A stretch of 64,000 nucleotides of DNA, taken from NCBI GenBank assembly GCA_002794035.1, contig PCXQ01000001.1:3256-67255 (forward strand), read 5' to 3'. This stretch comes from Candidatus Yanofskybacteria bacterium CG10_big_fil_rev_8_21_14_0_10_36_16 (lineage in GTDB: Bacteria; Patescibacteriota; Minisyncoccia; 2-02-FULL-40-12; IGHO2-01-FULL-4-A). Made by a program: the position numbers and the translations under genes. The notes beneath the pieces were generated by a model. That model saw nothing but the letters and a program-made list of their open reading frames with translations. It ran no database searches and was not told where the DNA came from. This document shows, in pieces, positions 29,774-47,866 of this stretch (position 1 is the first letter of the stretch; each line of letters starts with the position of its first letter).

Positions 29774-31255
29774 ATGGATAAAAAAATAATAGATTTAAGC
29801 AAAATTAGAAATATTTACATGATAGGTATTAAGGGTACTGGAATGGCGCCTTTGGCGGTTAATCTTAAAAATATGGGCAAAATAATTACTGGCTCAGATA
29901 GCAGTCAGGTATTTTTTACAGATGAATTGCTTAAAAAACAAAAGATAAACATACTTTCCCCTTTTAAGGCCGGCAATATTCCTAGTGATGTAGATTTGGT
30001 AATTACCTCTACCGCATATGATAGCAAAAACCCGGAAATAAAAGAAGCTGAAACAAGAGGCCTTTCTGTTTTGGGATATCCCGAAGTTATTGGACTTCTA
30101 AGTAATTCAATGAAATCTGTGGCAGTGTGCGGAAGTCACGGAAAAACCACAACAACTGCTGTCCTTTCATATATATTATCAAGGTCAAACATCGGTGTTC
30201 TGCCAAATGTCGGTTCAATAGTTCCCCAACTTATCAATTACAAACCGGATTTCCCTTCAGGGCTTATTAATTTGGAAAAGTCCGAGGCAAAATCAAGCAT
30301 TGATACGAGGCGTACAGATGGTACGTCGAGTGTTAATGCGAAGATTTTAACGAAGGAATTCGTCAAACCCGAAGGGATTGGCTCAAAAGATCTTGCTTTA
30401 GCAGGTCATAATTTGAGCCAAGTTAATATGCCGTGGTTTGTGTTTGAGGCTGATGAATATCAAAACAAACTAAGGCATTATAGTGCCGACATTGTAATAC
30501 TCACTAATATTGATTATGACCACCCTGATTTTTTTAAGACGCTAAATGAGTATAAAAAGGTTTTTGTTGATTTTGTAAAAAGAATTCCCAAGGACGGACT
30601 TTTGATATATTGTTCGGATGATAAAGAGGCATCAAAGATTTCCATATACGCAAAATGTCCCAAAATTGCTTATAATTTAGAATTATTAGATTTAAGTAAG
30701 TGGGAAATAAAACTTGCGGGCCAGCATAATATTCTTAATACAATGGCAGCTATTTTGGCTGCCAAACATCTCGGTGTAGATGAGGATACAATTAAAAAAG
30801 CTGTGGCAAATTTTCAGGGTGTTAAACGCCGTCTTGAGTTTATAAAAAATACCCGCATAAACGGGCAGGACTGTGTTTTAATAGATGATTATGGCCACCA
30901 CCCTACTGAGATCAAGGCTTCAATAAAAGCCATTAAAGAAAAATATCCCAACAAAGTTTTGTGGACTGTTTTTCAACCGCATACTTTTAGCAGGACAAGC
31001 GCATTGTTTGATGATTTTGCAAAATCATTTAAAGAATCTGATAAGACAGTTGTTTTGGATATTTATACTTCTGCAAGAGAAAAAAGTGGTTCTATACATT
31101 CTCGAGACTTGGTTAAACAAATGAATAGTTCAAATGTTTTTTATAAAAAAGACATTCAGCAAACAGCTAAATTTTTAAAACAAAAAATAAATTCTCCCAG
31201 TGTCATAATGACAATAGGAGCAAGCAATGTCTGGGAATTGCATGAGTTGGTTTAG
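29774..31255 (+). CDS. murC: UDP-N-acetylmuramate--L-alanine ligase
   Basis: 493 aa. GIKGTGMAPLA, GSHGKTTTT P-loop, EADEY, DDYGHHP. Carries an internal insertion of about 65 aa. Confidence 0.9.
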   Translation: MDKKIIDLSKIRNIYMIGIKGTGMAPLAVNLKNMGKIITGSDSSQVFFTDELLKKQKINILSPFKAGNIPSDVDLVITSTAYDSKNPEIKEAETRGLSVLGYPEVIGLLSNSMKSVAVCGSHGKTTTTAVLSYILSRSNIGVLPNVGSIVPQLINYKPDFPSGLINLEKSEAKSSIDTRRTDGTSSVNAKILTKEFVKPEGIGSKDLALAGHNLSQVNMPWFVFEADEYQNKLRHYSADIVILTNIDYDHPDFFKTLNEYKKVFVDFVKRIPKDGLLIYCSDDKEASKISIYAKCPKIAYNLELLDLSKWEIKLAGQHNILNTMAAILAAKHLGVDEDTIKKAVANFQGVKRRLEFIKNTRINGQDCVLIDDYGHHPTEIKASIKAIKEKYPNKVLWTVFQPHTFSRTSALFDDFAKSFKESDKTVVLDIYTSAREKSGSIHSRDLVKQMNSSNVFYKKDIQQTAKFLKQKINSPSVIMTIGASNVWELHELV

Positions 31256-31547
31256 TTAAAAATTAATAAGACTTTGTTTGTATTCTCATAGATTTCTGCT
31301 ACTATATTTCCATGCTTAGTATAGGTATGGTATGAACGCAATAGAACACAAGGAGGCCAAGTTTATTCCCTTCTCTTTTGTTATAAACCTGCCAAAACCG
31401 CGTTATGAGCGTATTATTGTAAACAGAGACCGGCAAGGTAGAATATTGAGATCAATGGCTCCCAAATAAAAGTTTGTAGCTCAAGAATTAAACTAACTGG
31501 GCTAAATTGAAAAATATGGTTCAGAAAATTTAATTCTTGTTTATATT

Positions 31548-31745
31548 ATGGAGACCTGTAACAGGTGTGACAAAGAATACCCCAAAGATTCAGAAAAGTG
31601 GCATCAAAGCACCGGTGGCATACAAACCGGTGGTGGCGATACGGATGAAAAAGGAGACTACACAGTGAAACCGGCAAAAATGTGCCACGAATGTTTTGAG
31701 AAACTACCAGAAGACCAAAAACATAGCTGGCCAGAAATAAACTAA
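31548..31745 (+). CDS. Small zinc-ribbon protein
   Basis: 65 aa. CNRC...CHEC pairs. Confidence 0.4.
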   Translation: METCNRCDKEYPKDSEKWHQSTGGIQTGGGDTDEKGDYTVKPAKMCHECFEKLPEDQKHSWPEIN

Positions 31746-31809
31746 CATGATTTAGGCAATATAAAATACTCCGGCAAGAGTATTTTATATTTTTATTATT
31801 TGAACTAGC

Positions 31810-32115
31810 TTACGCTATTCTGATTTCAAACTTCCTTCTGGTTGGAGCTAATGCCGCCCATCTCATGAAGGCAGTTTTTTGGAGCAAGGCATGGCTAGAA
31901 TTTAATGAATCAGATGTTTCTATCTCTACTACATATTCATAACCATTATGGGTTGCATAAACATCCGGTAGATGGCCATTAATTAGCGGCGGTTTGACAT
32001 TGCCCGGTAAATCTGACCAGACATTACTCCATCCGGCCGCAGTTATTTGTCTTGCCCAAGAAGCTACACCAGCATCGTGTTTTTGCTGATTAGCTTTCAA
32101 TCTTATATATGGCAA
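31810..32115 (-). CDS. Hypothetical protein, possible restriction-endonuclease-like fold
   Basis: 101 aa. LPDVYA...YVVEIET resembles a degenerate PD-(D/E)xK core. Confidence 0.35.
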   Translation of the reverse strand: MPYIRLKANQQKHDAGVASWARQITAAGWSNVWSDLPGNVKPPLINGHLPDVYATHNGYEYVVEIETSDSLNSSHALLQKTAFMRWAALAPTRRKFEIRIA

Positions 32116-32252
32116 TTTAAATTAAAAAGGGGTCTCTTGACTATAAATTTAATGGATGATAAGTTTCTGGGAACTGTTTATAACTTATTTTCATAATAAC
32201 TTATAAGTAGTTATAATTATTATTACTTACGTAAAAAGCTAAAAACTTTTGT

Positions 32253-32286
32253 AAAACATGCCTTTTGCCGAAGGCGTGTTTTATTT
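32253..32286 (-). terminator. Strong stem-loop terminator closing the defence operon and its tail
   Basis: aaaacatgcctt-ttgccg-aaggcgtgtttt, a 12-bp stem with A/T runs on both sides. Confidence 0.7.
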
Positions 32287-32671
32287 TCACATGGCTTCCA
32301 GACATTCTACTTATCGTCTTGAGCCCCCTCCCTTTCTTGGCCCTAATTTTAACAATTACTGCTTTGCAATTCTGCTTGCGATTTGGCCATTTTCACAAAC
32401 TGAAAAACAAAAAATCCTTTGGCCGAGACTTAAACGAGAACTGCAATAAGTTTCCTTATTGGTGTTCCCATCCAGATGGACATCTAGCTGGAACAACTAG
32501 TGCTCCCGCTAAAGTCCCTGCCAAAGGATTTCAAGGCTTTATTGTCTCGGCCGCTCTTTTAATGTCCGGCTGTCCAAACCGAACGAGCATTTTACTAATT
32601 ATTAAGTCTTAAACTAATTTCATTATAGGTTACCGTAAGATAGATTCAAGTAGCCCTTTTGTGGATAACGC

Positions 32672-33718
32672 TTATTTCTTTAACATTTTTTCAGCAAGCG
32701 CTTTTAGGGCTTCTTCGCCTTCTACGCCGCGGAGGCGGCCGGCAAGAAAGCCGAGTTTGTAATTTATATCATCGGCTATTAAACGCCAATTTGTGTCAGC
32801 TAAGGTTTTTTTGAGTAACCTGCGAAGATCATATACACTACTCCGATCTTGCCGACCGGGTTTATTATCCTGCAATGAAAAACCCACGGTTAAATCCCGC
32901 CCTGCTTCCGGCTTATCAAAATCAAGTTTAGAATACCCAGCTTTTTTAATAGCGGGGTTGAGGTGATTCTGTAGTTCTACAATGGTAAGTTTTTTAATTT
33001 TAGCAACAGCATCATAAATCTCCTTGTTCTCCTCGTGGTCTTTCATCCATTCCGCTATTTCTTTAAGGTTGGCAGTCCATGAAATGTAATCCGTACCCTC
33101 TTTGTCAGATATACAATATTTTCTTCTATTTGCCTCAAAGTTTGGATCAACCTCTTCTCTCTTGTCTAAATCCCAGGTATCAGTTTCTTTCTGGCCACAC
33201 CCCGGACAATTATAAGCTGTCGTTATGATATTACCCTTCCGGTTATGGACGGATGTTCTATTCGCATGGCACTTAGGACAAGGGTTTTTATATTCCCACT
33301 CTTGACCGTTTTCCCAGTAAGCACGTCGGCTATTACAGTTACTGCAGTCAAAGAAAAAGAGAACCCTGTCGTTTTTATCATTAATATCGGTATGTAAGTC
33401 TTTAGATTCTACTTGCATTAAATGGCTACAACTAAGGCAGCGGATTCCTTTCGGCTCAATGGCGTTATTAATCCTATCGTCTTTGTCCTGATCGCGTTCC
33501 ATCCATTTATGTATGGTTTCTGATTTATTTCTATATCGCTCTCCTTTTTTGAAATATAGGCCAATTTCTGTAAAAGCACCGGTTATTGAGCCGGCTTTTT
33601 TATACTTATCTCTTGAAGAGATATGATTCACAGAGTTAACCCATTCTTCGCATTCTTTAATGGTTAGGCGGTCATAAAGTTCGTGATAATAACTTTCGTC
33701 TTTTAGATACTTATACAT
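32672..33718 (-). CDS. Hypothetical protein with four CxxC pairs (two zinc ribbons)
   Basis: 348 aa. CLSC, CSNC, CPKC, CPGC in the central region. 3 nt downstream of the NERD gene. Confidence 0.6.
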   Translation of the reverse strand: MYKYLKDESYYHELYDRLTIKECEEWVNSVNHISSRDKYKKAGSITGAFTEIGLYFKKGERYRNKSETIHKWMERDQDKDDRINNAIEPKGIRCLSCSHLMQVESKDLHTDINDKNDRVLFFFDCSNCNSRRAYWENGQEWEYKNPCPKCHANRTSVHNRKGNIITTAYNCPGCGQKETDTWDLDKREEVDPNFEANRRKYCISDKEGTDYISWTANLKEIAEWMKDHEENKEIYDAVAKIKKLTIVELQNHLNPAIKKAGYSKLDFDKPEAGRDLTVGFSLQDNKPGRQDRSSVYDLRRLLKKTLADTNWRLIADDINYKLGFLAGRLRGVEGEEALKALAEKMLKK

Positions 33719-33721
33719 TTA

Positions 33722-34366
33722 TTAAGAATCGTTTAATCTTTTGAGGCCCTTGGCGCTTTCAATATGTGACCTCCGGCTCTTTTTGTCCTTTATATCGGCG
33801 TTTTTGATAATGCTACAAATCTCGTCCCTTTCACTGTCAGACAATACCAAATCAGTATATTGTCTGATTTTTTCTACAGTATCCCTGCCATTACCGACTG
33901 TATCCGTACCAGTAATTTTAAGCTTATCCGCAGACGGGAAAATTATAAATGAATAAATGGGAGTATTTTGAAATCGCGGCTTTATTAGTGCCTCTATTGC
34001 TTTGGTGTGGGCGTAATTTTGCCTTAATGGATTATAGAATCTGCTCTTTCGTCTATAAATAACTTGGGTCCAGTATTGATCGCTGGCTTTACCGAAAATC
34101 CATCCAGAATAATCTTTCGTTTCAATGCAAAAAATTCCAAATCTTGAAACTATGATGTGATCAATTTGAGTTGTGCTTGTATTGCCGGTTGAAGGCAACA
34201 AAACGTCGCTTAGATTTATATACTGTTTAGGATCCAGCCCTGTCAGTTTTTTGTTTACAAATCTTTCGCCTAGCCAACCTTTCCATTGCGGAAACTTATA
34301 TTTAACCCACTGAACAATGAGATAAAGAAATCCAAACCAAATTAGTAAATATATAATGTTTTTCAA
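33722..34366 (-). CDS. Membrane-anchored NERD (nuclease-related domain) protein
   Basis: 214 aa. N-terminal TM helix, then GERFVNKKL...QIDHIIVSRFGIFCIETKDYSGWIFG...WTQ pattern typical of NERD. Confidence 0.8.
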   Translation of the reverse strand: MKNIIYLLIWFGFLYLIVQWVKYKFPQWKGWLGERFVNKKLTGLDPKQYINLSDVLLPSTGNTSTTQIDHIIVSRFGIFCIETKDYSGWIFGKASDQYWTQVIYRRKSRFYNPLRQNYAHTKAIEALIKPRFQNTPIYSFIIFPSADKLKITGTDTVGNGRDTVEKIRQYTDLVLSDSERDEICSIIKNADIKDKKSRRSHIESAKGLKRLNDS

Positions 34367-34389
34367 TTTATAGTTATTGATGTATTTAG

Positions 34390-35724
34390 TTAGAAGGCAT
34401 GTCGCTCATTTTTTGTGATTTTTTGTAAAAACATTTTTTGTTGTTTTTTCTTTTGTAACCAACCCAACTTACACAAATCAGTTACTACTGACTGGGATAT
34501 TTTATATAGTTGTTTATCTAAATCAATCACCGTATTATCAACTTGTAATGCCAAATCATTCAAGCCCATTAATTTGATACCATTTAGTGTTCTAACGCGG
34601 GATAGAGCCACATAACCCATCCCGTAAGTAAATGACTTGCTAAGGTCAATTTCTGCAGCGTCTAAGCTCATCCCTTGGCTCTTGTGGACCGTAATAGCCC
34701 AAGCAAGCCGCAGGGGTACTTGGCTTATCTCCGCTTTTATAAGGTCATTTTCTTCAACGGTCCAACTTGTTGGCCGAGCTGCCACTTCTTTGCCTTTAAT
34801 TGTTTTGATAATAGGATAACTATCACCATCAAAATCAATTACTTTGCCCAATGTTCCATTAACATATCCTTTATCAAAATTGTTCTTTACAAACATTACT
34901 ACGGCATCCTTTTTTAAGGTAAGCTCTTCCGGAGCCAAGCAGCCTTTTTTCAATGATTCTACAAGATATTTTTCACCCCTGCATTGCATTTTATAAGTTT
35001 TTGGTTCGCTTTCAATTTTATTAAGTTCAAAGTTATTAATTGCATCCACATCAACATTATGAGTATAAAGTTTGGTAGGAGTTATATTAGTAACGGCCGG
35101 TTTGTTAAACCGGCTTGTTAAAAGACCAAGTGATGTGTCAGATGTTTTGCCAGCTCTTATATCATTTAACACATTAAGAAAATTAAGATCTTGTTGCCGG
35201 TATTGTTCTGTCAGATAGCAAATCTTTATATTCATGTTCTCCCAAGCTTTAGATGTGTGTATAAAACTATCATCTTCACCATTTTTTGATACTGGCGGTA
35301 ATTGAAAAAAGTCTCCGGATAAAATTACCTGCAAACCGCCAAATGGCAAATCATTTTTCTTAAACGCTTTGCAAACCTTATCTACCATGTCTAATCGGAA
35401 TGAGTGAAGCATTGAAACCTCGTCTATTATTAAAACTTTTGTTTTTAGGAATCTTGCTCGGAAGTTAATATTTTTAAGTAACTTTGATAAATGATCATCG
35501 GTAATCTCGTTTTGTATTCCTAATCCCGCCCAAGAGTGTATTGTCCGGCCATTCATATGAGTTGCGGCAATGCCGGTTGAGGCGGTTATACCAACGCCAA
35601 TATTTTTCCCTTTCAGAAAGTTGATATACTTGTTTAATAAAAAAGTTTTCCCGCTTCCAGCGGGACCAGTTAGATACACATTATGTCCAAGTTTTAATAT
35701 ATCTAAAGCTTCCTGTTGGGTCAT
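34390..35724 (-). CDS. SF1 helicase, PIF1/RecD-like
   Basis: 444 aa. GPAGSGKTF, TIHSWAGLG, LIIDEVSM, GDFFQLPPV, ITVHKSQGMSLD. Confidence 0.85.
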   Translation of the reverse strand: MTQQEALDILKLGHNVYLTGPAGSGKTFLLNKYINFLKGKNIGVGITASTGIAATHMNGRTIHSWAGLGIQNEITDDHLSKLLKNINFRARFLKTKVLIIDEVSMLHSFRLDMVDKVCKAFKKNDLPFGGLQVILSGDFFQLPPVSKNGEDDSFIHTSKAWENMNIKICYLTEQYRQQDLNFLNVLNDIRAGKTSDTSLGLLTSRFNKPAVTNITPTKLYTHNVDVDAINNFELNKIESEPKTYKMQCRGEKYLVESLKKGCLAPEELTLKKDAVVMFVKNNFDKGYVNGTLGKVIDFDGDSYPIIKTIKGKEVAARPTSWTVEENDLIKAEISQVPLRLAWAITVHKSQGMSLDAAEIDLSKSFTYGMGYVALSRVRTLNGIKLMGLNDLALQVDNTVIDLDKQLYKISQSVVTDLCKLGWLQKKKQQKMFLQKITKNERHAF

Positions 35725-35743
35725 AAATTAAAAACTTAAAAAC

Positions 35744-37531
35744 TTAAAAACTTTGATAATACTCCCTTATCATATTAGCCATTAATTTTTGTCTTTCTTC
35801 CAGAAATTTTTGATAATCAGTAACTTCCATATCTAACACACTTACTGGTATGGCATTTTCTTTCAAGTTGTTTTCAAGCTCATTCTTGTCTTTAATGCCA
35901 CTGTATTTGAAAACCCCATTTTCAAGATGTTCCAATATTTCAGTAAAGTATTGTTTGGGTGATTTTGCTCCGATTTTGATATTAATTTCACTTTGTGTGT
36001 AGGCAAAATTGGCTATTTGGTTGTAATCTCTCTGTTTTAGCTTGTTGCTTTCAAGATATTTTTTGGGAAATATATGGTGTATATCTCCACGATGTATAAT
36101 CATATCTCGTACTTTTATATCAGTGGAAAGAAAACCTCTTTTTCCTAATTTTACTTGTGCTGCCCAAAAAAGTTTTAAGTACGGACTGGATATACTAGAT
36201 TTAACTAAATCGCGCACCAGACCTTCTGACCAGAATGTATCTGATAATTCAGCCCTCTCTATTCCTTCAAGATATTTTTCAGCACGCTGCTCAACGATGT
36301 TTCTTATATCTGTATCAAATTGGCTTTCGGGAGACCCAGAGTATCTTCCTATTAGCAGCGACATTATGAGCCACTTGCTAACTATACGCTCTATTTCAGA
36401 ATCATTGTATTCTTGTGATCTCAATTTGAGATATAAAATATAAGCAAAGTTTAAAGCATTTTTTGAACGAATTAACCCGCTTACTTCAAACCCCGCTGCC
36501 TTAACTATCATAGAAAAGCGTTCATAATGAGTTTTGTTTACAAAATCTAATACGCCGTTTTTTAATTTATTATAAGAATCCTCAACGATGGCTTCTTCGT
36601 AAGCCCTTGTTTCAAAGTTTCTACCAGATAGTAAACTTACCAAATCCCTCAACCTTCCGCGATTAAACTCTTTAGTAAAGCCAACCCTAATAATATCGGT
36701 ATAATCTGGTTGATAAATGTCATCCTGCAAGTTTTTGGCCCAAAGTATTTTTTGATAATATTCTGTATTAGTAAAGTCATCACTGGCGGATTTAATATTT
36801 TCAATAAACTCCGGATGTCGCAGAGTATGCGCAAAGTAATCTATTGCTTTTCTTAGATTTATCCCAAAATCTCCAAATGCTGCGATTCGTGACATTGCAA
36901 AGTCGGCCTGACTTAACACAACCCCCTCGGAGTTAATCCTGATAAATATTTCAGTAACCGTTTCTATATCAAGATTTTCTTTTAACTCTATAAATCCGAG
37001 CTGCTTATCTTTGATAGAATAAAGCTTGTCAATGTTGTTTTGAATGGTTTGTAAGTCTGCTTTTGGATTTCTTTTTTTGTATTCGTCTACAAGCGCAAAA
37101 ATACCTCCCTCATTTTTCAAAAACTCCGAAATATCACCAATCCAATTAACATCTTTTTCAATCGCGGGTGTTAATGTTTCAAACTTTTCCTCAATGGGAT
37201 TGAAGGCAATCCTGATTCTCATTTTTCTATATTCCTTGTCTAAAACTTCTTCTCCGAGAATGGCTGCTCTTAGTGCCGTAATTCGCTGCTGTCCGTCTAT
37301 AACAATTTTTTTACCGGATGATAAACTGCCATCTTTTAGACGAATAGATGGGTTACGCCATACAATTATGTAGCCAACAGGAAAGCCTTTATAGATAGAA
37401 TCCATCAAATCCCTCACTTTAATTGAACTCCACACAAAGGGTCGTTGAATCTCTGGTATAGCAATTTCATTGGACTGAACCCAGCTTAAAATGTCTTTAA
37501 TAAAATATTGATTTATAATGTATTGTTGCAT
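35744..37531 (-). CDS. DUF262/DUF1524 protein (GmrSD-like Type IV restriction family)
   Basis: Start moved to MQQYIINQ, 4 nt after the res stop. EIQRPFVW and IDGQQR (ParB-like NTPase) N-terminal; HRGDIHHIFPKKYL His-Me finger C-terminal. Confidence 0.85.
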   Translation of the reverse strand: MQQYIINQYFIKDILSWVQSNEIAIPEIQRPFVWSSIKVRDLMDSIYKGFPVGYIIVWRNPSIRLKDGSLSSGKKIVIDGQQRITALRAAILGEEVLDKEYRKMRIRIAFNPIEEKFETLTPAIEKDVNWIGDISEFLKNEGGIFALVDEYKKRNPKADLQTIQNNIDKLYSIKDKQLGFIELKENLDIETVTEIFIRINSEGVVLSQADFAMSRIAAFGDFGINLRKAIDYFAHTLRHPEFIENIKSASDDFTNTEYYQKILWAKNLQDDIYQPDYTDIIRVGFTKEFNRGRLRDLVSLLSGRNFETRAYEEAIVEDSYNKLKNGVLDFVNKTHYERFSMIVKAAGFEVSGLIRSKNALNFAYILYLKLRSQEYNDSEIERIVSKWLIMSLLIGRYSGSPESQFDTDIRNIVEQRAEKYLEGIERAELSDTFWSEGLVRDLVKSSISSPYLKLFWAAQVKLGKRGFLSTDIKVRDMIIHRGDIHHIFPKKYLESNKLKQRDYNQIANFAYTQSEINIKIGAKSPKQYFTEILEHLENGVFKYSGIKDKNELENNLKENAIPVSVLDMEVTDYQKFLEERQKLMANMIREYYQSF

Positions 37532-37535
37532 AAAT

Positions 37536-40217
37536 CTATTTTTCCCAAAGTCGGGCCGCTTCATCAAAGCTTTTCGGCTTCTGTGATAGCTTATCCCAAT
37601 CTTCTTGTTTAATATAAAGCATTTTGTATTTAACGTCGTTCTGAATACTATTAACATCTTTTATCCATTGTTCCAAGCGTTTTATTTTCTCAACATCGTC
37701 TAAGTCTTCGCGGCCTTTGGTTTCTATGATGTACACTTCTTTTTCTGAAACCTTTACGAAAAAGTCCGGGTAGTAATTTGAAATATCACCACTGGCATTT
37801 CGGTAATCAATCCTAAAATTAACTGCGAAGTAGTTTTTAGCATAAGAAATTATATCTTCCACTCCATCAAGAAAACCGGCAAACTCAAGTTCAAAATGCC
37901 CATCTCCAACTATTTTATTAAATGCGCTTTTCTTCGGTACAAGATATGCTTGATCCTTCACGACAAATGGTCGGCTCTTACTAATCTTAATATAATTTTG
38001 GATCTCGGCCTCGCCCTTATCTACCACGGTCAATTCGTTTATCTTCTTCTTAAATGTTTCTGTTACTGTTTTGCTGGCTTCAAGCTCTGACAAATTACGC
38101 AAAGCATTAAGATCGTCCAACTGTATTTTTTTATCAAAAAGGTTGTTTTCAATAAACTCTTTTACTTGGCCGTATAGAATATCATAACCGCTAAATAACC
38201 GAAGCTCTTTCATAATAACATTGGTAAAATACCCTATAACACTTTGGTAATCTGGTATGAAATTACTATCTAACTCTGTCTTGTGAGTTATATCACCGCT
38301 GGTAATATCCCTGAATATAATTTCGCGCTTTTCTTCTTCTGAAAACTCCTTTAATTTAACTTTCTTGTGACCAAATGTTGAAACATCAAGGTCTGAAAGG
38401 TTTTTATATTCCCGATAAATACGCGGTGTAAGAATGGGTATTTGAATATCTAACCTCGGTATATCTTTTTTGGTGTTTTCATTATCAACCTCAACAACCA
38501 AAGGAGCTTTAGGTTCTGTGCCTTCTCCCATTTTTCTGTGCTCAAGCTCAACACCTTCACTTTTAATAGATTCCACAAAATCCATAAAAGCATCTGTGCC
38601 CACTACACTAACTAATTCCGGCACTTCTTCGTTGCGATACATTCGTCTTAACCCTCTTCCAAGTGTTTGTTCTGGCAATATGTTGCTCTTTGAAGAATAA
38701 GGCCGCAATCCAACAATGGTTGTAACATTACGGACATCCCAACCTTCTTTAAGCATTAACACGGAAACTATGGCCTTATAAGGATTATCAAAATTATCAA
38801 TCTTGTTTGCTGCTTCCCGCAGCTTTTTTAATTCCTCCTCATTTTTCCCAGTTGCGCTTTCGGATATTTCACCGTTATTTTTTGTATGAATTACTAATAC
38901 AGAGTTTTTAAACTCCGGATAAGTATTTTCAAGATATTCAGCAACTTCATCACCGTTCTTAGTATCGTCGGTCATTAAAAACAAAACTGCTTTTTTGCCC
39001 AGTTTTATATGTTCATCATAAACCTTTTTCCACTCCAAATAACCGAGATGGACATAGTCCTTGTATTTCTCACTGAACTTTGAACTTTTATGCTCTTGTA
39101 GCTTGGCTCGGCTTGCAGAATCGGGCAGGACCGGACGCTTTACTACGTTTTGGTGAATGGCTTCAACCAATGGGTAATCGCTTATTGTTTGAACAAATAT
39201 AGCTCCGTTATTATGTCTTGGGGTAGCTGTTACATCAATTTGTAAAGATAATTCTTTGCCTTTCATCTTGAGACGATTGTGTATATCTTCTATGGACTTA
39301 AACCACGCTAAACGGCCATCGTGGATATGGTGCGCTTCATCATTTAGTACAACCAGCTCATCTATATCTCTAACTATTACCCCAAGATCAACTTTTGATT
39401 CATTTGTTGCGCCAACTGGTTTTTCGCCAAGAAAATATCGGGCCGTGTTTTCATCTTCAAAACTCGCAGCACTGCTATTACTCTCATAAACCCGATGAAT
39501 GTTAGTTAGAAAAATGTTTCCAGTTTTTTTAACTACACCTATTTCGTCTTGAATATGCAAAGTTAATTGAAAATCATCCCGCCAATTTTGGCCTGCAAAA
39601 CCATTATCCGGAAGTACCGGGTCTTCAAAAAATATCTTTAAGCCGTCAAAATCAGACCTGATACGGTCTAAAACAATAATGTTGGGGGTGATAACCAAAA
39701 AGTTTCGGGCTAATTTTGAATCCTCTTCATAAAGTTTATGAAAGAAGCTCCAAGCAAGAAGTAAACTTAACACCTTTGTCTTGCCGCTTCCGGTTGCCAT
39801 TTTTATTACGAAACGTAACCAGGATTCTTCAAACATTCCTGCTGAAACTGCTCCGGAACTATCAAATCTTATAAGGTCGTATTTATCTTTTACTTTTGCT
39901 ACTTCGTGGAGATAAATGGTTGTTTCTACTGCTTCTCTCTGTCCAAAATAGTATTGAAAAAGAAAGGTCTCTCCATCTGTATTTTCTCTTGGGTGGTCTA
40001 TTTTAAACCACCATTTAAGTAACGCTTTACTTGTTTCACTTGCCCCTTCATAATCAGCATCTCGCCATTCTTTGACCTTCCTACGAAGTTGATCCACTAA
40101 AGGCGGTAAAAGCCGAGCATAGCCCTGTTCTCTTAATGTCTCGTCTGCCGGAAACCACCGGAGGTCCGGGTTTAAAATCTCGTGAGGTGATTGTGGAAAC
40201 TTAGGGTGTAGTGCCAT
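37536..40217 (-). CDS. res: Type III restriction enzyme Res subunit
   Basis: 893 aa. MATGSGKTKV, LNDEAHH (DEAH), helicase C motifs, C-terminal YYPDFFV...YIIETKG PD-ExK nuclease. Confidence 0.9.
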   Translation of the reverse strand: MALHPKFPQSPHEILNPDLRWFPADETLREQGYARLLPPLVDQLRRKVKEWRDADYEGASETSKALLKWWFKIDHPRENTDGETFLFQYYFGQREAVETTIYLHEVAKVKDKYDLIRFDSSGAVSAGMFEESWLRFVIKMATGSGKTKVLSLLLAWSFFHKLYEEDSKLARNFLVITPNIIVLDRIRSDFDGLKIFFEDPVLPDNGFAGQNWRDDFQLTLHIQDEIGVVKKTGNIFLTNIHRVYESNSSAASFEDENTARYFLGEKPVGATNESKVDLGVIVRDIDELVVLNDEAHHIHDGRLAWFKSIEDIHNRLKMKGKELSLQIDVTATPRHNNGAIFVQTISDYPLVEAIHQNVVKRPVLPDSASRAKLQEHKSSKFSEKYKDYVHLGYLEWKKVYDEHIKLGKKAVLFLMTDDTKNGDEVAEYLENTYPEFKNSVLVIHTKNNGEISESATGKNEEELKKLREAANKIDNFDNPYKAIVSVLMLKEGWDVRNVTTIVGLRPYSSKSNILPEQTLGRGLRRMYRNEEVPELVSVVGTDAFMDFVESIKSEGVELEHRKMGEGTEPKAPLVVEVDNENTKKDIPRLDIQIPILTPRIYREYKNLSDLDVSTFGHKKVKLKEFSEEEKREIIFRDITSGDITHKTELDSNFIPDYQSVIGYFTNVIMKELRLFSGYDILYGQVKEFIENNLFDKKIQLDDLNALRNLSELEASKTVTETFKKKINELTVVDKGEAEIQNYIKISKSRPFVVKDQAYLVPKKSAFNKIVGDGHFELEFAGFLDGVEDIISYAKNYFAVNFRIDYRNASGDISNYYPDFFVKVSEKEVYIIETKGREDLDDVEKIKRLEQWIKDVNSIQNDVKYKMLYIKQEDWDKLSQKPKSFDEAARLWEK

Positions 40218-40218
40218 A

Positions 40219-40614
40219 TTAGGTCAATCTGTAGATATATGCGTCTTTAATAAAAATACCGTTAATGATGTTTGATTTAAATCTAATACCTGCTTTTGAC
40301 TGTTTTGATGTTTTTATCATTGTTCTCAAAAGTTTCAGAAAGTCATTATCGTGATGAAGTATTGTTATATTTGAAAGTCCGATGTCTTTTACTGTTTTTT
40401 CTTCCCCGAATTGATTGATGAAATCATTATAATTTTGCCGCGTATTTTTAATACGGTCATATTTTTTTGATGAAATTAATAATCTCCAAGCATCTGACTC
40501 GGGAACAAGTATCCAAAGAAAAACCGTTGGATTTATTTTTTGTTTATCCATCAAATCTAATAAGGTTTTTCCACTTTCAATTTTTGGTTCTTCTACCATA
40601 ATTTTTTTATCCAA
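40219..40614 (-). CDS. 131-aa orphan protein paired with HEPN (no nucleotidyltransferase motif)
   Basis: Overlaps the HEPN gene by 22 nt and ends 1 nt before the res start. No GSx10DxD MNT signature. Confidence 0.55.
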   Translation of the reverse strand: MDKKIMVEEPKIESGKTLLDLMDKQKINPTVFLWILVPESDAWRLLISSKKYDRIKNTRQNYNDFINQFGEEKTVKDIGLSNITILHHDNDFLKLLRTMIKTSKQSKAGIRFKSNIINGIFIKDAYIYRLT

Positions 40615-41030
40615 ACTAAAATACCCTTACGCCTATCTTTTATTGAGTTGATTAAAGCTTCTGCGTCAGTTTTCTTGCATATTCCATATCTGCTTTCTTC
40701 GGTCCAATCTTTAACCGTGCTCCAATTTGACTCAAAGCCCTTATCTTTGCCTGCTCTCTTATCAAAGGCCCACTTGATACCACTTACACTCAATAAGTCG
40801 TTTAAATCGTGACTATAGAGTTTCTGATAAACACTCTTTTTTGGAGGGAAGCTCTTTTCTTTGACATTTTTGCAATAGCAAGCCTTGAGGGCAAGTTCAA
40901 CGGCATAACCTGCTAAATAGTAAGCACCACTATACTCCTTATTATTAAAAAGGGTTATCGCTTCTCTGATGCGCCTCAATGCTAACTTTTTAAAATCACC
41001 GTATTCTGGATTGTCCCAAAATAAAGCCAT
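40593..41030 (-). CDS. HEPN domain protein
   Basis: 145 aa. AYYLAGYAVELALKAC...SHDLNDLL...EESRYG pattern of HEPN (PF05168-like). Confidence 0.7.
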   Translation of the reverse strand: MALFWDNPEYGDFKKLALRRIREAITLFNNKEYSGAYYLAGYAVELALKACYCKNVKEKSFPPKKSVYQKLYSHDLNDLLSVSGIKWAFDKRAGKDKGFESNWSTVKDWTEESRYGICKKTDAEALINSIKDRRKGILVWIKKLW

Positions 41031-41033
41031 ACT

Positions 41034-43283
41034 TTATATACTAATCTCAATTATTTTCATTGTATCGTTACCGAAAATATCTACGACCTTTATGGCAATT
41101 TTACGTCTGCCTTTTGGTAATTCTTTATAAGCGGTTATAAACTCAAGGTTTCTGTCCTTTTTGGTTCTAAATGATTGCCATTCGTTTTCAAAAATGTAAT
41201 CGCCGGTCCATTGTTCTTCAATTTCTTCCTTTTCGTTTTTTATAGCCACAACTTCTTTTTTGCTTTCAAAGTTAAAGTCAACGGACCAGTAATCAATCCA
41301 ATCACTCCATTTTTCAGTCAAAACATCCCTTGTAACTACACCCTCTTTGTCTTTTGAGATTTTAATAATTTTACCATTTTCTACTACAAGCTTTTTGCTG
41401 CCGTTTTTGAGGCTTTCTTCTACCTCTTTAATTGAATCTTGATTATAAAAAACTGAAAAATCAGTTAACTCAATGGCCAATGAGTTCTTTTTTATATGAG
41501 GCTTAACTTCAATGTAAGATACGTCGTGAAAAACAACTTGGTTTTTTTCTACAGCCCGTTTGTCAAATACATCTCGTGGAATATATTTAAGGGCCAAATC
41601 AACACCTTGATTTTTGGCATCTTCTTGTATTCTCGGAAATAATCCCATTTCAAACTCAAAAGCCAATATGTCTACTTTAGTTATTTTCTTTTCAACTGCT
41701 TCTTTAATTACTTCTTCAACAAATAACCGAGTAACTGGCAAGTTAATTGGGCCAACAGATACTAATCTTGCAGATTTTTTACCGAAAAAGGTTTTGAAAT
41801 TATTAATTGGTTCTGCTTTGTATGCTGACAGGATTAAAGAAACAAAATCTTTTTCTTTCTGTGCGATTTGTTTTTGCTTTTGCTCGTCCCGAAGATTGGG
41901 GTTTATACCAACGTAATGCTGCCTTTCATATTTACCAAGATTTAATACTTCAAATGCCCGATAATCTTTCCCAGTCTTTTTAAGTTCTCGTTGCACTCCA
42001 ATCATTCTCTTGCGTGTTGTGTGAATTGAGAACTTACCCAAGTCAGAACCAATCCATTTGCGGCTTAGTTTTTCAGCTGCAGCAAGGGTGGTACCAGAAC
42101 CGACAAAGAAGTCGGCAACAAGATCGTCCTCGTTTGAAGAGGCCTTTATTATGCGCTCAAGTAAGGACTCTGGTTTTTGGGTTGGATAATTATTACGTTC
42201 TTTAGCCATTGGATTAACTGGATTTATATCTAGCCAAATATCTTCAGAAACATTTCCTTTAGTATCTTCGTAAAACCTTTTTACATATGGTAACCCACTT
42301 TCAGAAAAAACAATAAGTCCCCGTTTCATTCCTTCATCTATTCTTTCTTGAGACCATATCCAGTGTTTGCCTGCCGGTGGATACAGCAACTTTTCACCGA
42401 ATTTTTTTGCTTCACCTTGTCCCTTTTGAGTAAAATCAGCCAAAGAATATCTTTTTCCCGTTTGCTCATCGGTGTACCTGTAATGAGTTTTTAATAATTT
42501 TTCCGATTTCGGTAAAAATTGAGTATTAAAAATAGTCTTCTCTTTATCTTTTGAATAAAAGAAGACTGTATCATGTACGTTTGGATAAGTTTTTGACTGT
42601 GGCTTAGCCGATGTCAGTTTTTGCCAAATAATTTCATTTTTAAAATTATTAGTTCCAAATATCTCATCTAATACCAACCTCATGTAGCTGTTAACCCTCC
42701 AATCACAATGTACATAAATACTCCCGTTTGCGGCCAACAAATCTCGCATCAGTGAAAGTCGCTCGTAAATCATAGAGATAAAACTATCTGCTCCCTTGCC
42801 CCAAGTATCCCGATATGCTAATTCCTCTAATACTGTTGGTTGTTTCTTAAACTCTTCGCCCCCAACCTCAATATCCATAGAAAAATCTGCCCCAACATCA
42901 AAAGGCGGATCAATGTAGATAAGTTTAATGCCCCCATTAGCTTCAATTTCTTCTCGTAGGGGTCCATTTTTTAAGCTTGATAGGATTAGTTTGTTGTCAC
43001 CCCAAATAAGTTTATTAGTCCAGCCCTTGATTTGGCGGCCGCGCTGGTCAAAATCAAACAACACCTGCTGGCGCTTTACTTCCTTCTCACTTCTCGGCTC
43101 ATCAACCTGTTCAATAACCTGAAATGGCAAGATAACATTGGTGACTTCATTTGTCTTGCCGTTCCAGACAAGCTCAACCTCTCGTTTGTCCTCAAACAAA
43201 AGAAACCGGTACTTATCGGGAAGAGGTTTACCGGCTTCAATAAACTTTATAGCATCGCGTTTTTCATTGTCAGTTAGATCCAT
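41034..43283 (-). CDS. mod: Type III R-M Mod subunit (beta-class N6-adenine/N4-cytosine DNA methyltransferase)
   Basis: 749 aa. IYIDPPFDVGADF (motif IV) precedes DFFVGSGTTLAAA (motif I). C-terminal extension of about 330 aa. Confidence 0.9.
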   Translation of the reverse strand: MDLTDNEKRDAIKFIEAGKPLPDKYRFLLFEDKREVELVWNGKTNEVTNVILPFQVIEQVDEPRSEKEVKRQQVLFDFDQRGRQIKGWTNKLIWGDNKLILSSLKNGPLREEIEANGGIKLIYIDPPFDVGADFSMDIEVGGEEFKKQPTVLEELAYRDTWGKGADSFISMIYERLSLMRDLLAANGSIYVHCDWRVNSYMRLVLDEIFGTNNFKNEIIWQKLTSAKPQSKTYPNVHDTVFFYSKDKEKTIFNTQFLPKSEKLLKTHYRYTDEQTGKRYSLADFTQKGQGEAKKFGEKLLYPPAGKHWIWSQERIDEGMKRGLIVFSESGLPYVKRFYEDTKGNVSEDIWLDINPVNPMAKERNNYPTQKPESLLERIIKASSNEDDLVADFFVGSGTTLAAAEKLSRKWIGSDLGKFSIHTTRKRMIGVQRELKKTGKDYRAFEVLNLGKYERQHYVGINPNLRDEQKQKQIAQKEKDFVSLILSAYKAEPINNFKTFFGKKSARLVSVGPINLPVTRLFVEEVIKEAVEKKITKVDILAFEFEMGLFPRIQEDAKNQGVDLALKYIPRDVFDKRAVEKNQVVFHDVSYIEVKPHIKKNSLAIELTDFSVFYNQDSIKEVEESLKNGSKKLVVENGKIIKISKDKEGVVTRDVLTEKWSDWIDYWSVDFNFESKKEVVAIKNEKEEIEEQWTGDYIFENEWQSFRTKKDRNLEFITAYKELPKGRRKIAIKVVDIFGNDTMKIIEISI

Positions 43284-43371
43284 GGGCCATAGTAAGATAA
43301 CTTTTACTTAAAGGGTATCACTTTTGTGCTGTTTTTTAAAGGTCTGAAAAAGAGCGTTGAGGGCGTTGACA

Positions 43372-43785
43372 CTAAACGAGAAATTGAGCGACAAACCAGA
43401 TGCCGGCAGTAATTAAAAACCATATCAACTGATTGGCTTCCCTAAAATCTCCGGAGCGGTAGTAGCGGCCAACTTGGGTTACGGTAAATATCGCGGCAGT
43501 CATCGGGATAAAGTTAAATGGAATATCAAATCTAAAGGACACGAGATAATATACGATTATTAAAGCTACCGCTTCGGAAAAACCCGAAAAGCGTGATTTT
43601 AAAATATCGCTATGTTTATCTAACAACCCTTTGAATGGGGCATAAATGAACATAGCAATAATTGGACTAATGGCTGCGATATAAAACAATGAGAATAAGG
43701 CCCATAAGAATGGCAAAAATATAAAAGAAGAAATAATAACTATACCCCATAGCAGTAAACTAATTTTTGATTTTATTACATCCAT
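43372..43785 (-). CDS. Small four-helix membrane protein, unknown function
   Basis: Start moved to MDVIKSKISLLLWG (137 aa). 88 nt upstream of mod on the same strand. Confidence 0.55.
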   Translation of the reverse strand: MDVIKSKISLLLWGIVIISSFIFLPFLWALFSLFYIAAISPIIAMFIYAPFKGLLDKHSDILKSRFSGFSEAVALIIVYYLVSFRFDIPFNFIPMTAAIFTVTQVGRYYRSGDFREANQLIWFLITAGIWFVAQFLV

Positions 43786-43810
43786 AAAATTACAAAACCC
43801 GCCGCTAGGC

Positions 43811-43897
43811 GATGGATTTCTCCACCTGTTACCCTTTCGGGTAACAACCACTGCTGGTGCTCCTAAACGACGGGTTTAGTACCCAGCAGTGGTTTTT
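43811..43897. promoter_or_regulatory. Cluster of GC-rich hairpins (candidate structured leader or small RNA)
   Basis: gatgga-tttc-tccacc, gttaccc-tttc-gggtaac (GAAA loops on the minus strand), and a 10-bp stem ccactgctgg/ccagcagtgg enclosing ctaaac-gacgg-gtttag, then TTTTT. Confidence 0.4.
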
Positions 43898-44012
43898 ACG
43901 TCATACCTCAAATGTTGACATTTTGAGGGTTAGGCAATTTTTAGTTGTTAGACCAATATTATCACAAAACCTTGAAAATCTCCATAATTTTCGTTTTACT
44001 TAAATTAATACT

Positions 44013-44768
44013 ATGGCCTTAATTAACGACAAACAATTTAAACAATTTTTAGAACTCCTAATAAATAAGGTTGAATTAAGAAACGATATTCATTTGGGAA
44101 TACAATACCGTGAATTAATCCAAATATTTTTAGATGATAACGCTATCAAAGATTATTTGCGCTATTCTGAAAATAAGAAGTTGTTAAAATTAATAGGCAT
44201 ATCTAAATATAAAGAAAAGGAAGATCCTTACCCTGATGATTATTATATAAACGAGATAACGCCTAACAATGATTTTATAGGCCCGAAAAGATATTATGCC
44301 GTAAAGAGGTATATACGGTATAATTTCTACCCAAAGGACAACTTTATACTTGATGTGTCTGATAAAAAAATTAAAGGTTTTTATAAGCAGTATCAAAAAG
44401 AAGGTCCGGGGCAAGACCCAAAACGGCTAATTTCCAAAAATAAAAGTGCTTATTTTTATAAATCAAAACAAATAGTTTTTGACAGTGAAGAAACTGACTA
44501 CTTCAGAGTATTTGATGTCCTTTACGAAAATAGTGGGCAAGACAACTTTTTGTCATATGAAAATATAGATAAAGAAATGGTCCGAAGGGGCTCGCCAAAA
44601 CTTATAGATGATCAACAAAAAATTAAACGTATTCATAATGCAGTTAAGAACTTATTTTTATATTCTCGTTGCGGAAGTGAAAAGCTAAAAAATACTACGC
44701 CCAATAAAACTGAACTAATAAAAAAGGTTAGAGGGAGAGGGTGTGTTTTCAATAACCCTCTAATTTAA
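44013..44768 (+). CDS. Hypothetical protein, possible C-terminal winged-helix
   Basis: 251 aa. C-terminal KKVRGRGCVFNNP resembles OmpR/PhoB-type wing endings. Confidence 0.45.
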   Translation: MALINDKQFKQFLELLINKVELRNDIHLGIQYRELIQIFLDDNAIKDYLRYSENKKLLKLIGISKYKEKEDPYPDDYYINEITPNNDFIGPKRYYAVKRYIRYNFYPKDNFILDVSDKKIKGFYKQYQKEGPGQDPKRLISKNKSAYFYKSKQIVFDSEETDYFRVFDVLYENSGQDNFLSYENIDKEMVRRGSPKLIDDQQKIKRIHNAVKNLFLYSRCGSEKLKNTTPNKTELIKKVRGRGCVFNNPLI

Positions 44769-44899
44769 TAAGTTATCTCTCAATTTCTTGTGGACAGCCA
44801 AATATCGGCTGTCTTTTTTTCTTTTTTTACTTGGTTTTAGCGGCCAAAGAGATAAACGGAGAAATTAAAAGATATTAAATATTGATTCAAAATTAAATT

Positions 44900-45526
44900 A
44901 TGCAACCAATAATTAAAACTTTTACTGAACCGGATTGGGATTATCTGTTTTGGACTTGGGATTTAGAAAAACAATGGCAGGAGTCATTGCCAAGGCCAAC
45001 TGAACGAGAGTTGTTAGGTATTTTCCCGGAAGCAAAAAAGATATTGCCGGCATTATTAAGGGACTGGCAACAAAGAAAAAGTGAATTAACCAAAGAACTG
45101 GCTCGGAAATTAAAAATAGTAAAACTTGGCGCGGATAGCGACAGCGAAAGATTTTTCTGGACTGAATGGCTGAAAACAAAATATTTAGGAGAAATTACTG
45201 AAATCGTTAATGACATTAAAAAGTTCAAGAGAATGATGGCTATATCAAACAACCGGGGCCGAGCCTTACGAAGCGAAGAGTCATTGCAAAAGGCTTTAGC
45301 TGTGCCAATAGCATCGGCTATCCGAATTAAACTAAGAAAATTGGGTAATAAACTTGTTGGGCTGTGTCCCCTACATAACGAGAGTAACCCATCATTTTAT
45401 ATCTATACCGATACTAATTCCTTTTATTGCTACGGATGTGGCAAGGGTGGAAATGTAATCAACTTGGTTAGATTTCTACACGATTACACATTCCCAGAAG
45501 CAATAAAGTATTTAACTAATTTATAA
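44900..45526 (+). CDS. CHC2 zinc-finger protein (DnaG-primase-type finger)
   Basis: 208 aa. CPLHNESNPSFYIYTDTNSFYCYGCGKGGNVINLVRFL. Confidence 0.65.
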   Translation: MQPIIKTFTEPDWDYLFWTWDLEKQWQESLPRPTERELLGIFPEAKKILPALLRDWQQRKSELTKELARKLKIVKLGADSDSERFFWTEWLKTKYLGEITEIVNDIKKFKRMMAISNNRGRALRSEESLQKALAVPIASAIRIKLRKLGNKLVGLCPLHNESNPSFYIYTDTNSFYCYGCGKGGNVINLVRFLHDYTFPEAIKYLTNL

Positions 45527-45609
45527 CTTTTGTTTCTTGTTCGGGCTCTTGGCAAAGGCCATAGTAAGCTCCGGCCAGGAGCTCAAACAAGAAACGCGGA
45601 GCTTACTTT

Positions 45610-47154
45610 ATGTCAAACAACCAAAACAATGAAAAACAAAATAAGGAAGGGCGGAAACCACAAGCAACCAAAATCGTAGAATTGGTCAGTGAAAGCAACA
45701 TAACCCTATTCCATAACGAGTTAAAACAGCCCTATGCCTATATTGAAATAAATAACCATAGCGAAATATGGCCCTGTGAAAGCAGGCAATTTAAGGACTG
45801 GCTGGGACACATATTTTGGAATAACGAAGGAAAATCTGCCTATCCTAATGCGATAAACGGTGCGCTATCAACATTAAGAGCCAAGGCGCTTTACGAAGGA
45901 CAGAAGTATAAACTAAACAACCGAGTAGCAATCAAAGACGGTGCAATTTGGTATGACCTTTCTAACAATAACTGGGAAGCGGTCCGTATAAGCAAAAATG
46001 GATGGCGAATCATAGGCAACCCTCCTATCATATTTCAGCGCTTTTCTCATCAGCAAGAACAATTAACCCCGGTACCAGAAGGAAATATAAAGGATGTCTT
46101 ATCGCTAATCAATGTAAAAAAAGAACACCAACTGCTTTTATTGGTTTACTTAGTATCCTGTTTTATTCCGGACTTTCCCCATCCGATATTGGTGGTTCAC
46201 GGGCCTCAAGGCTCATCAAAATCAATGCTATCCAAAGTTCTTAAAAGCTTAGTTGATCCATCTGTATTAGAAACTTGCGACTTCCCTGCAAGTAAAGCGG
46301 AACTGGCTCAAATACTATCCCACCATCACTATGTTGTCTTTGATAATCTCTCGTACCTATCAGATTCAAATTCCGACATTCTATGCCGTGCTGTTACCGG
46401 AGGAGGATTTTCAAAACGGGAACTCTACACGAACGACGAAGACGTAATACACCTATTTAAGCGTTGCATAAACCTCAACGGCATAAATCCGGTGGCAACA
46501 AAACCAGACCTGCTAGAACGAAGCATATTACTGGAATTAGAAAGGATACCCAATGAAAAAAGGAAAAAAGAGACAGATATTTTGCAGCAATTTGAAACCA
46601 AGAGACCAGAAATATTAGGGGCAATCCTAAACACAGTTGCCAAAGCAATGGAGATTAAAGAATCAATAAAAGTAACTGGATTGCCGCGGATGGCGGATTT
46701 TACAGAGTGGGGTTGCGCTATCGCTGAAGCAATAGGACATCCAAAAGAAGAGTTTTTATCTTCTTATTTTGAAAACATAAAGTCGCAAAATGACCAGGTT
46801 ATTTATGATAGCCCTGTTTGCAGTACTCTTTTGAGCTTAATGAAGGAGCGAGAGCAATGGAATGGAACAGCAACGCAACTTTTATCTGAGTTAATTGAAG
46901 AGGCGGAAAGGTTAAATATCAACACAAAAGAAAAAGGCTGGCCCAAATCAGCAGCGTCATTAAGCGGTAAATTAAATAACTATAAAACCAATCTTGAAGA
47001 AGCCGGTATAAAAATAAATCGTTTTGATGAAAACAGGCAAAGACAATTATCTATCAGCAATGATTCTGCTATTGAGAGCCAGGCCGGCAACGGATTAGCC
47101 GAAGAAGACGATAGAGACGCTGCAACGCTCTCAACGCTCTTTCCCGAGCATTAA
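45610..47154 (+). CDS. P-loop NTPase, putative element replication helicase (phage/plasmid primase-associated type)
   Basis: 514 aa. VVHGPQGSSKSMLSKVL Walker A and VVFDNLS Walker B-like. Follows the CHC2 gene. Confidence 0.55.
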   Translation: MSNNQNNEKQNKEGRKPQATKIVELVSESNITLFHNELKQPYAYIEINNHSEIWPCESRQFKDWLGHIFWNNEGKSAYPNAINGALSTLRAKALYEGQKYKLNNRVAIKDGAIWYDLSNNNWEAVRISKNGWRIIGNPPIIFQRFSHQQEQLTPVPEGNIKDVLSLINVKKEHQLLLLVYLVSCFIPDFPHPILVVHGPQGSSKSMLSKVLKSLVDPSVLETCDFPASKAELAQILSHHHYVVFDNLSYLSDSNSDILCRAVTGGGFSKRELYTNDEDVIHLFKRCINLNGINPVATKPDLLERSILLELERIPNEKRKKETDILQQFETKRPEILGAILNTVAKAMEIKESIKVTGLPRMADFTEWGCAIAEAIGHPKEEFLSSYFENIKSQNDQVIYDSPVCSTLLSLMKEREQWNGTATQLLSELIEEAERLNINTKEKGWPKSAASLSGKLNNYKTNLEEAGIKINRFDENRQRQLSISNDSAIESQAGNGLAEEDDRDAATLSTLFPEH

Positions 47155-47186
47155 TAAAACAAGGGGTACTACCCATAACTTAAGTT

Positions 47187-47836: not shown

Positions 47837-47866
47837 TTTCCAATTTTAAGTTATAATGAGTAAACT

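Follow-up and report, generated by a model that had tools for sequence, protein, structure and literature searches.

Transcription attenuators and riboswitch platforms, such as the trp leader, the pyrBI leader and the T-box leaders, are built on exclusive folds that share overlapping segments, one stem standing directly before a U-tract, and in the retroregulation exerted by lambda sib a hairpin overlaps a terminator and acts via RNase III. To our knowledge, hardly any regulatory RNA of the candidate phyla radiation (CPR) has been characterised. Here, we analysed a 64-kb stretch of the genome of Candidatus Yanofskybacteria, a CPR bacterium (hereafter the window), in which a structured non-coding element follows the 4xCxxC gene, the last of a row of minus-strand genes located in a candidate integrative mobile element. 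An earlier note had described the DNA at 32287-32671, between this gene and a hairpin, as structured and non-coding. According to the folding models, the RNA structure is real and strand-specific, with two states that look designed, and we tentatively read it as a conditional terminator upstream of a small nuclease gene, p101.

All the pairings and features listed in the earlier note were found where it had placed them, but they belong to a structured core restricted to 32401-32592 of the minus strand, within a whole RNA unit of about 215 nt (approximately 32615 to 32401), and the remainder of the proposed span up to the next hairpin (32287-32400) shows no significant structure. The core contains a 28-nt inverted repeat whose arms are 82% complementary as DNA and form 26 of 28 pairs when read as minus-strand RNA, the outer 12 bp being perfect, because three of the five DNA mismatches become G.U pairs. 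The resulting stem abuts the U-tract UUUUUUGUUUUU without a gap, that is, a stable stem followed by a U-rich tract as in intrinsic terminators. The 11-nt pairing previously listed is the outer end of this repeat, the pairing of GGCCGAGAC with GTCTCGGCC holds at nine of nine positions, the hairpin with the GAAA loop has arms at 32438-32450 and 32455-32467, and the 17-mer is indeed followed by a T-run (TTTTTTGTTTTT) on the minus strand. Folding of the minus-strand RNA 32620-32400 was far more stable than expected (-77.1 kcal/mol, z = -6.07, equalled by none of 200 shuffles), compared to z = -3.24 for the plus strand of the same stretch, and a sliding 160-nt scan of 30800-33500 returned a sole strong minus-strand signal, at 32400-32559 (z = -6.0). 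Besides, the two model folds include 12-13 G.U pairs and no A.C mismatch, indicating that the signal is specific to the minus strand, as would be expected if selection had acted on a minus-strand transcript. The 9-mer inverted repeat is not significant by itself (about 0.5 expected in 521 nt by our own arithmetic), unlike the 28-bp stem with its two-fold design. The higher GC content reported before was also observed (0.40-0.44 at 32300-32600 against 0.24-0.29 in the adjacent intergenic DNA), and no Pfam match was obtained for the open reading frames (ORFs) of the region, which is non-coding, as the note had proposed.

The pairings are mutually exclusive, as had been suggested, and they define two complete folds of near-equal energy. 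In fold A, at -77.1 kcal/mol, a helix is formed by GGCCGAGAC (32552-32544) and GUCUCGGCC (32429-32421), 32500-32478 takes up the inner half of the 5' stem arm locally and 32474-32464 the inner part of the 3' arm, so that the 3' arm is divided between segment a and the 32474-32464 strand, the 28-bp stem is wholly broken, and just a weak predicted 6-bp hairpin inside the U-run is found before the U-tract. In fold B (-76.2 kcal/mol), the 28-bp stem stands at the U-tract, in which 11 of 12 bases are U. A fold that excludes the terminator with comparable stability, as seen in attenuators, is therefore present, and the ensemble probabilities were 0.28 for the fold A pairs and about 0.7 for the fold B pairs. 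As a control for this bistability, both stem arms were kept and all other sequence was shuffled with its dinucleotide content preserved (n = 300). The best stem-less fold of these shuffles trailed the stem fold by 18.0 kcal/mol on average (standard deviation 4.7), with three of the 300 within 5 kcal/mol and none within 1 kcal/mol, against a native difference of -0.9 kcal/mol, indicating a specific complementarity of the remaining sequence to the arms. When folding was followed on the growing chain, local hairpins formed first and fold A was reached once a' emerged (lengths 199-203), which suggests that read-through would be the kinetic default and that fold B would need help. By our reading of the topology, the two helices might even form together, in a pseudoknot having a linker of 12 nt and a long loop of about 90 nt.

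Promoters and terminators were assigned by consensus matching alone. A promoter-like site separates the 4xCxxC gene from the structure (Table 1), with a predicted transcript start at about 32615, and the window has about one site of equal quality per 3.2 kb of each strand, so that one would fall within about 60 nt of the structure with a chance of roughly 2% by our own arithmetic. Only four 12-nt stretches with at least 11 T are found on the minus strand of the window, one of them exactly at the foot of the stem, and the U-tract lies 260 nt from the stop codon of the 4xCxxC gene. This stem and its U-tract, ending at 32401, come first after the gene, and thus the hairpin at 32253-32286, formerly taken as the first convincing terminator, loses that place; the hairpin exists (32252-32283), but it is more stable on the plus strand, where a G.U pair replaces the C.A of the minus strand (z = -6.0 and -3.3, respectively, in the scanned segment that includes it).

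Table 1. Positions of the features discussed in the text; coordinates refer to the 64-kb window unless a locus (L) is given.
Feature	Position	Strand	Remarks
Promoter-like site TTGAAT-16-TATAAT	32622-32649	minus	10/12 consensus matches; starts 23 nt past the 4xCxxC stop codon
5' hairpin H1 (GCUC GUUCGGUU UGGAC AGCCGGAC ... GAGC)	32553-32588	minus	in both folds; two U.G pairs
Segment a (GGCCGAGAC)	32544-32552	minus	fold A partner is a' (32421-32429); ensemble probability 0.28
5' arm of 28-bp stem	32504-32531	minus	fold B; in fold A the inner half pairs with 32478-32500
Inner domain, 64 nt	32440-32503	minus	sub-hairpins, including the GAAA-tetraloop hairpin (32444-32461)
3' arm of 28-bp stem	32412-32439	minus	holds a' (32421-32429) and switch segment GUCUCGGCCAAAGGAUU
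U-tract	32401-32411	minus	with the last U of the stem forms UUUUUUGUUUUU; predicted 3' end of the short RNA form
Spacer, U-tract to next hairpin	32287-32400	minus	no significant structure (z -1 to -2.7); no credible ORF
Bidirectional terminator-like hairpin	32252-32286 (hairpin 32252-32283)	both	T-runs on both sides
p101	31810-32115	minus	TTG start at 32115, fixed by the N-terminus
4xCxxC gene, 348 aa	32672-33718 including stop codon	minus	last of the gene row; identical to NCBI COV29_00185
Type III methyltransferase	41034-43283	minus	gene row
HEPN protein, 131-aa protein, type III Res subunit, GmrSD, PIF1-type helicase, NERD nuclease		minus	gene row, listed in order after the methyltransferase
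LOOT (Rfam)	43811-43936	minus	inside the 18.4-kb insertion
Protein with primase-type CHC2 zinc ribbon	44900-45526		within the insertion
514-aa protein of unknown function			within the insertion, beside the primase-type gene
Large serine recombinase	48059-49702		within the insertion; 3' end overlaps the ychF start
LOOT beside 4xCxxC genes	L014 5201-5333; L028 5200-5333; L022 5146-5288; L083 5150-5277; L038 5194-5317	plus	
LOOT within 4 kb, four further loci of 84	L072 3243-3385 (minus); L063 359-486; L078 302-441; L075 3432-3562		
Element 2	L004 5033-5292; L005 5038-5307; L006 5038-5298 and 5836-6090; L007 5033-5285; L043 5019-5276; L082 5061-5318; L081 5007-5226; L062 1992-2243; L071 5073-5320; L049 3159-3374; L056 5053-5289; L039 6893-7146		plus about 17 weaker matches
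Motif TTTAAAGGTCG(A/C)AAA	L101 2960-2985; L103 25-45; L104 295-315; L105 210-235; L106 315-340		

The gene downstream of the element, p101, looked like an orphan in a word-indexed search, and an exhaustive search returned 196 homologs of about 100 aa. PF18743, an AHJR-like restriction-endonuclease fold, was matched in 21 of the 40 homologs scanned, p101 matched the family profile with E = 2e-39, and the motif HD...PDVYA...EVET is conserved. Judged from these sequence relationships, p101 is a real gene for a small AHJR-like PD-(D/E)xK nuclease, and in several fetched contexts (L098, L101, L105, and L108) restriction-modification or methylase genes are found close to its homologs. When the contexts of eight homologs were compared for leaders, non-coding leaders of about 250-365 nt, closing with a terminator some 45 nt ahead of the start codon, were seen in L098, L101, L105, and L106 (those of L105 and L106 end at the contig edge), with alternative hairpins recognised by eye in L098 and L105. 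The best covariance-model match in the leaders of this family was L098 478-570, from the closest homolog (E of about 0.013); since its alignment score of 20 was no better than that of shuffles (19.2 +/- 3.3), it was treated as a generic terminator match. In one subgroup of the homologs, a motif absent from the window, TTTAAAGGTCG(A/C)AAA, is located 30-45 nt upstream of the start codon, directly after a terminator-like hairpin and T-run in L101, L105, and L106 and without one in L103 and L104, and it may be a promoter or operator.

Taken as a model, the reading that we tentatively favour, and hold as plausible rather than probable, is that the element represents a conditional intrinsic terminator (attenuator) or small RNA unit upstream of p101. 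Fold B would work as an intrinsic terminator with a large branched loop, stopping at the U-tract the transcripts that arrive from the 4xCxxC gene row or start at the promoter-like site (32649-32622), while fold A would allow read-through towards p101, so that the element would gate this gene. Fold A would be the default, and a factor blocking segment a or the local hairpins would turn termination on; a protein, another RNA, or a ribosome on a 19-codon ORF (32590-32531) could be such a factor. The structures, their strand specificity, the two-state design and the placement of the U-tract come from computation, whereas that the region is transcribed, that fold B terminates, that the folds interchange in the cell, what triggers the change, and that p101 is the regulated gene are all steps that we infer. 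Several observations weigh against this reading. The start of p101, on the same strand as the element, lies 285 nt past the U-tract, and the interval holds the second hairpin and an AT-rich stretch able to hold a promoter of its own; the other p101 homologs have no leader in common; no Rfam aptamer or T-box match and no convincing leader peptide were found in the search for a sensor, the 19-codon ORF being the lone leader-peptide candidate, without a ribosome-binding site or a codon run; and a terminator with 64 nt inside its stem is atypical. Indeed, the consensus terminator scan, which looks for compact hairpins with loops of 3-8 nt, did not report the 28-bp stem, whose 64 enclosed nucleotides include sub-hairpins. 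To these points is added the lack of homologs described below.

It is also possible, if rather unlikely, that the mobile element encodes here a trans-acting small RNA of about 215 nt, transcribed from a promoter of its own and ended by the 28-bp stem and U-tract, which would regulate genes of the element or the host through base pairing or protein binding; the second fold would then be incidental or self-regulatory, as in the immunity RNAs of phages P4 (CI) and P1 (c4). The promoter-like site, structured body and U-tract do form a compact unit in a mobile element, and two or three segments lying further upstream in the RNA can pair with its 3' segment. On the other hand, duplex energies computed against the 73 start regions in the window gave no start-codon target better than shuffled RNA (-42.3 vs -40.3 +/- 3.4 kcal/mol), no homolog was found, and the promoter is a consensus match.

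That the 4xCxxC gene row simply ends in an oversized 3' untranslated region with a terminator, which would shield the 3' end of the mRNA or be cut by RNase III without any functional switching, is an unlikely explanation, even though the 28-bp stem is the first terminator-like site past the stop codon, is located within a mobile element, and, as a near-perfect duplex of 28 bp, has the length that RNase III requires. The stability of the alternative fold greatly exceeds chance expectation (0 of 300 shuffles), the distance from stop codon to U-tract is long, and the promoter-like site stands between the gene and the structure. The earlier proposal of a non-coding RNA component or 3' regulatory element of a defence operon is supported as regards a 3' or terminator-type RNA element, but not as regards a component of the operon, considering that none of 84 related loci has it and that the gene row is mobile cargo.

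The searches for homologs covered 80 genome loci and 4 viral loci encoding 4xCxxC homologs (84 loci, 827 kb). Three other assemblies with the same 4xCxxC protein, as well as the metagenome contig L093, show no difference from the window over this region (100% identity), and the next relatives are distant (58% identity for the closest 4xCxxC homolog and 52-59% for the closest MurC); no close relative genome is available. None of the 84 loci has a similar sequence or structure downstream of the 4xCxxC homolog by blastn, nhmmer or covariance model, a result that goes against the earlier proposal as far as this family is concerned, and the covariance model R2, built from this RNA and fold B, matched just two ordinary terminators in the 827 kb. 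A 17-mer scan of viral contigs gave two chance matches, a 19-mer scan of metagenome contigs gave the identical contig L093 of the same organism and three chance matches, blastn in its 'distant' setting against phages and plasmids gave none, and Rfam 15 gave no match at the gathering score and, at E <= 10 on 441 nt, chance-level matches to unrelated eukaryotic or small RNA models. Accordingly, neither covariation nor conservation can support the element, with no homolog in the collections searched, and as an orphan of a single population its value is that of a lead. Three further candidates were rejected. A housekeeping RNA (6S, SRP, RNase P or tmRNA) had no Rfam or ARAGORN match, and the insertion is absent from relatives in which murC abuts ychF. 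A conserved partner of the 4xCxxC gene was found in none of the 84 loci, where the median downstream gap is small. Finally, a decayed protein gene, a possibility the earlier note had raised against itself, did not emerge: tblastn of ORFs of at least 50 aa from the 80 related loci against 31250-32700 gave noise only, the p101 family profile matched p101 alone, and Pfam gave nothing on the plus-strand ORFs.

The order of promoter, RNA, U-tract, hairpin and nuclease gene recalls type III toxin-antitoxin loci, and the terminator-ended leaders of L098, L101, L105, and L106 follow the same plan, from which an antitoxin-like RNA partner of p101 could be proposed. We consider this very unlikely: Tandem Repeats Finder returned just a 12-nt, 2-copy palindromic artefact and no direct-repeat family was found, while those systems have tandem direct repeats of about 34-45 nt upstream of the toxin gene, p101 has a DNA-nuclease fold rather than that of a ToxN-type endoribonuclease, the leaders of its homologs are unlike this RNA, and other homologs are leaderless.

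The genomic context of the element was delimited by comparison with three fetched relatives. In two of them (L084 and L086), murC directly abuts ychF, and in the third (L085) a 613-aa gene lies between the two, while in the window the end of murC (31255) is far from the start of ychF (about 49650). Because murC abuts ychF in L084 and L086 but not here, the 31256-49649 segment (about 18.4 kb) represents an insertion, a candidate for an integrative mobile element in a CPR genome. The gene row and the structured element lie within these limits and are thus inside the integrated mobile element. Its cargo, type III restriction-modification with HEPN, GmrSD, PIF1, and NERD, is the whole gene row, and a large serine recombinase, a protein with a primase-type zinc ribbon and a 514-aa protein with no relative in viral contigs are also encoded there (Table 1). 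A hairpin site acting at the DNA level, such as a single-strand origin or a transfer, packaging or recombination site, might be conceived for a long inverted repeat in an element with primase-type and recombinase genes, all the more as folding of the minus strand as single-stranded DNA gives z = -4.8. Yet this is hardly probable, since the 12-13 wobble pairs favour RNA, the U-tract and promoter-like site suit a transcription unit, and the distance from the structure is about 12 kb to the primase-type gene, about 13 kb to the 514-aa gene and about 1.1 kb to the murC-side end of the insertion. A chance structure or functionless gene remnant, which an orphan identical in four assemblies and conserved in one population alone might suggest, is the least probable explanation given z = -6, the two-state result of 0 of 300, the strand-specific wobble pairs and the lack of protein similarity to ORFs of the 80 related loci or the p101 family.

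On the plus strand, two promoter-like sites, TTCATA-16-TATAAT and TTTTCA-18-TATAAT, end at 32217, about 35 nt before the hairpin at 32252-32283 (segment 32188-32291). Together with this hairpin they could produce a tiny plus-strand RNA or insulate the structured element from antisense transcription.

The 4xCxxC family itself appears to be associated with phages or prophages of CPR bacteria, considering its recurrent neighbours and the presence of multiple copies in some genomes. Upstream and on the opposite strand, these neighbours are a ParB-N/DNA-methylase fusion (28 loci), a protein with an HTH_Tnp_1_2 domain that we read as small-terminase-like (19 loci), and LexA-like repressors (7 loci), whereas NERD and PIF1 are not conserved partners, PIF1 being found in L061 alone. 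In most of the loci the next gene is no more than 100 nt downstream. In five loci, the LOOT RNA (Rfam RF03000) is located about 55-120 nt downstream of the 4xCxxC-family gene on the same strand, four further loci have it within 4 kb, and one copy lies in the insertion of the window (Table 1). This distribution suggests a link between LOOT and the mobile elements or phages of CPR bacteria; we know of no function assigned to it. No LOOT was found in 32287-32671 by the Rfam model or by our own LOOT model R1, both of which find the copy at 43805-43942. Moreover, a conserved non-coding sequence of about 170-250 nt, here called element 2, occurs on the same strand 0-4.5 kb downstream of 4xCxxC genes in about 30 of the 84 loci, with the motifs TGTCCCATTTGTCCCATT, CAGACCCCGACCCACaTGCCTCAA and GCTAtAATACCCTTATAA and a hairpin CTCGGG..ACTTAACCCGAG followed by TGTCCCGCC. 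Element 2 had no Rfam match in the six loci scanned, is absent from the window, and could be a phage promoter/operator region or an undescribed RNA. The regions downstream of the 4xCxxC homologs of L033 and L049 are also structured (z = -7.7 and -9.6), and a small ORF of about 66 aa (MATDASGMKGYRSRNQDGELRDKRDDTHMGTIEEKYG...) is conserved within the long structured region at L033 5300-5500 and L049 2850-3050. With enough homologs for comparative work, LOOT and element 2 are the more tractable leads.

If the proposed switch is real, it would be a rare case of RNA-based gene control in the CPR, carried on a mobile element with restriction, GmrSD, PIF1, and NERD cargo. A bolder and quite improbable extension is that the element is the first member of an undescribed class of RNA switches on CPR mobile elements, a factor-sensing two-state terminator controlling an AHJR-like nuclease beside restriction-modification cargo, or else an RNA that directly neutralises the nuclease. 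Should this be true, the slot after 4xCxxC-family phage genes would be occupied by at least three unrelated structured RNAs, among them this element, LOOT and element 2.

Compared with described systems, the element shares with LOOT the genomic niche, both after 4xCxxC-family genes in five related loci and within the same insertion, but it has no match to the LOOT model at E <= 10, and LOOT consists of four simple hairpins with CCUAAA and GCAUGG motifs, whereas the element is a long stem with a U-tract. The type III toxin-antitoxin system ToxIN resembles it in the order of promoter, structured RNA, terminator and nuclease gene, and differs in that here tandem repeats are absent, the nuclease is of the PD-(D/E)xK AHJR-like type and the spacing is long. 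The immunity RNAs CI of phage P4 and c4 of P1/P7 also have a short segment complementary to at least two others in the transcript and coupled to termination, and the insertion described here likewise includes a recombinase and a primase-type zinc-ribbon protein, but the element has no sequence or structure match to them in Rfam. As in lambda sib/tI retroregulation, a long hairpin lies 3' of a mobile-element gene, overlapping a terminator, and stop or read-through would decide the outcome, although the upstream gene is not a recombinase and the site is not beside an attachment site. Relative to the attenuators, the element has no recognisable sensor (aptamer, T-box or credible leader peptide) and no family, its stem of 28 bp encloses 64 nt, the competing helix uses the 3' rather than the 5' strand of the terminator, and it is located after a gene row and 285 nt before the next gene. 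Overall, it is nonetheless the terminator/antiterminator expression platforms that the element works most like, having exclusive folds, overlapping segments and one stem directly before a U-tract.
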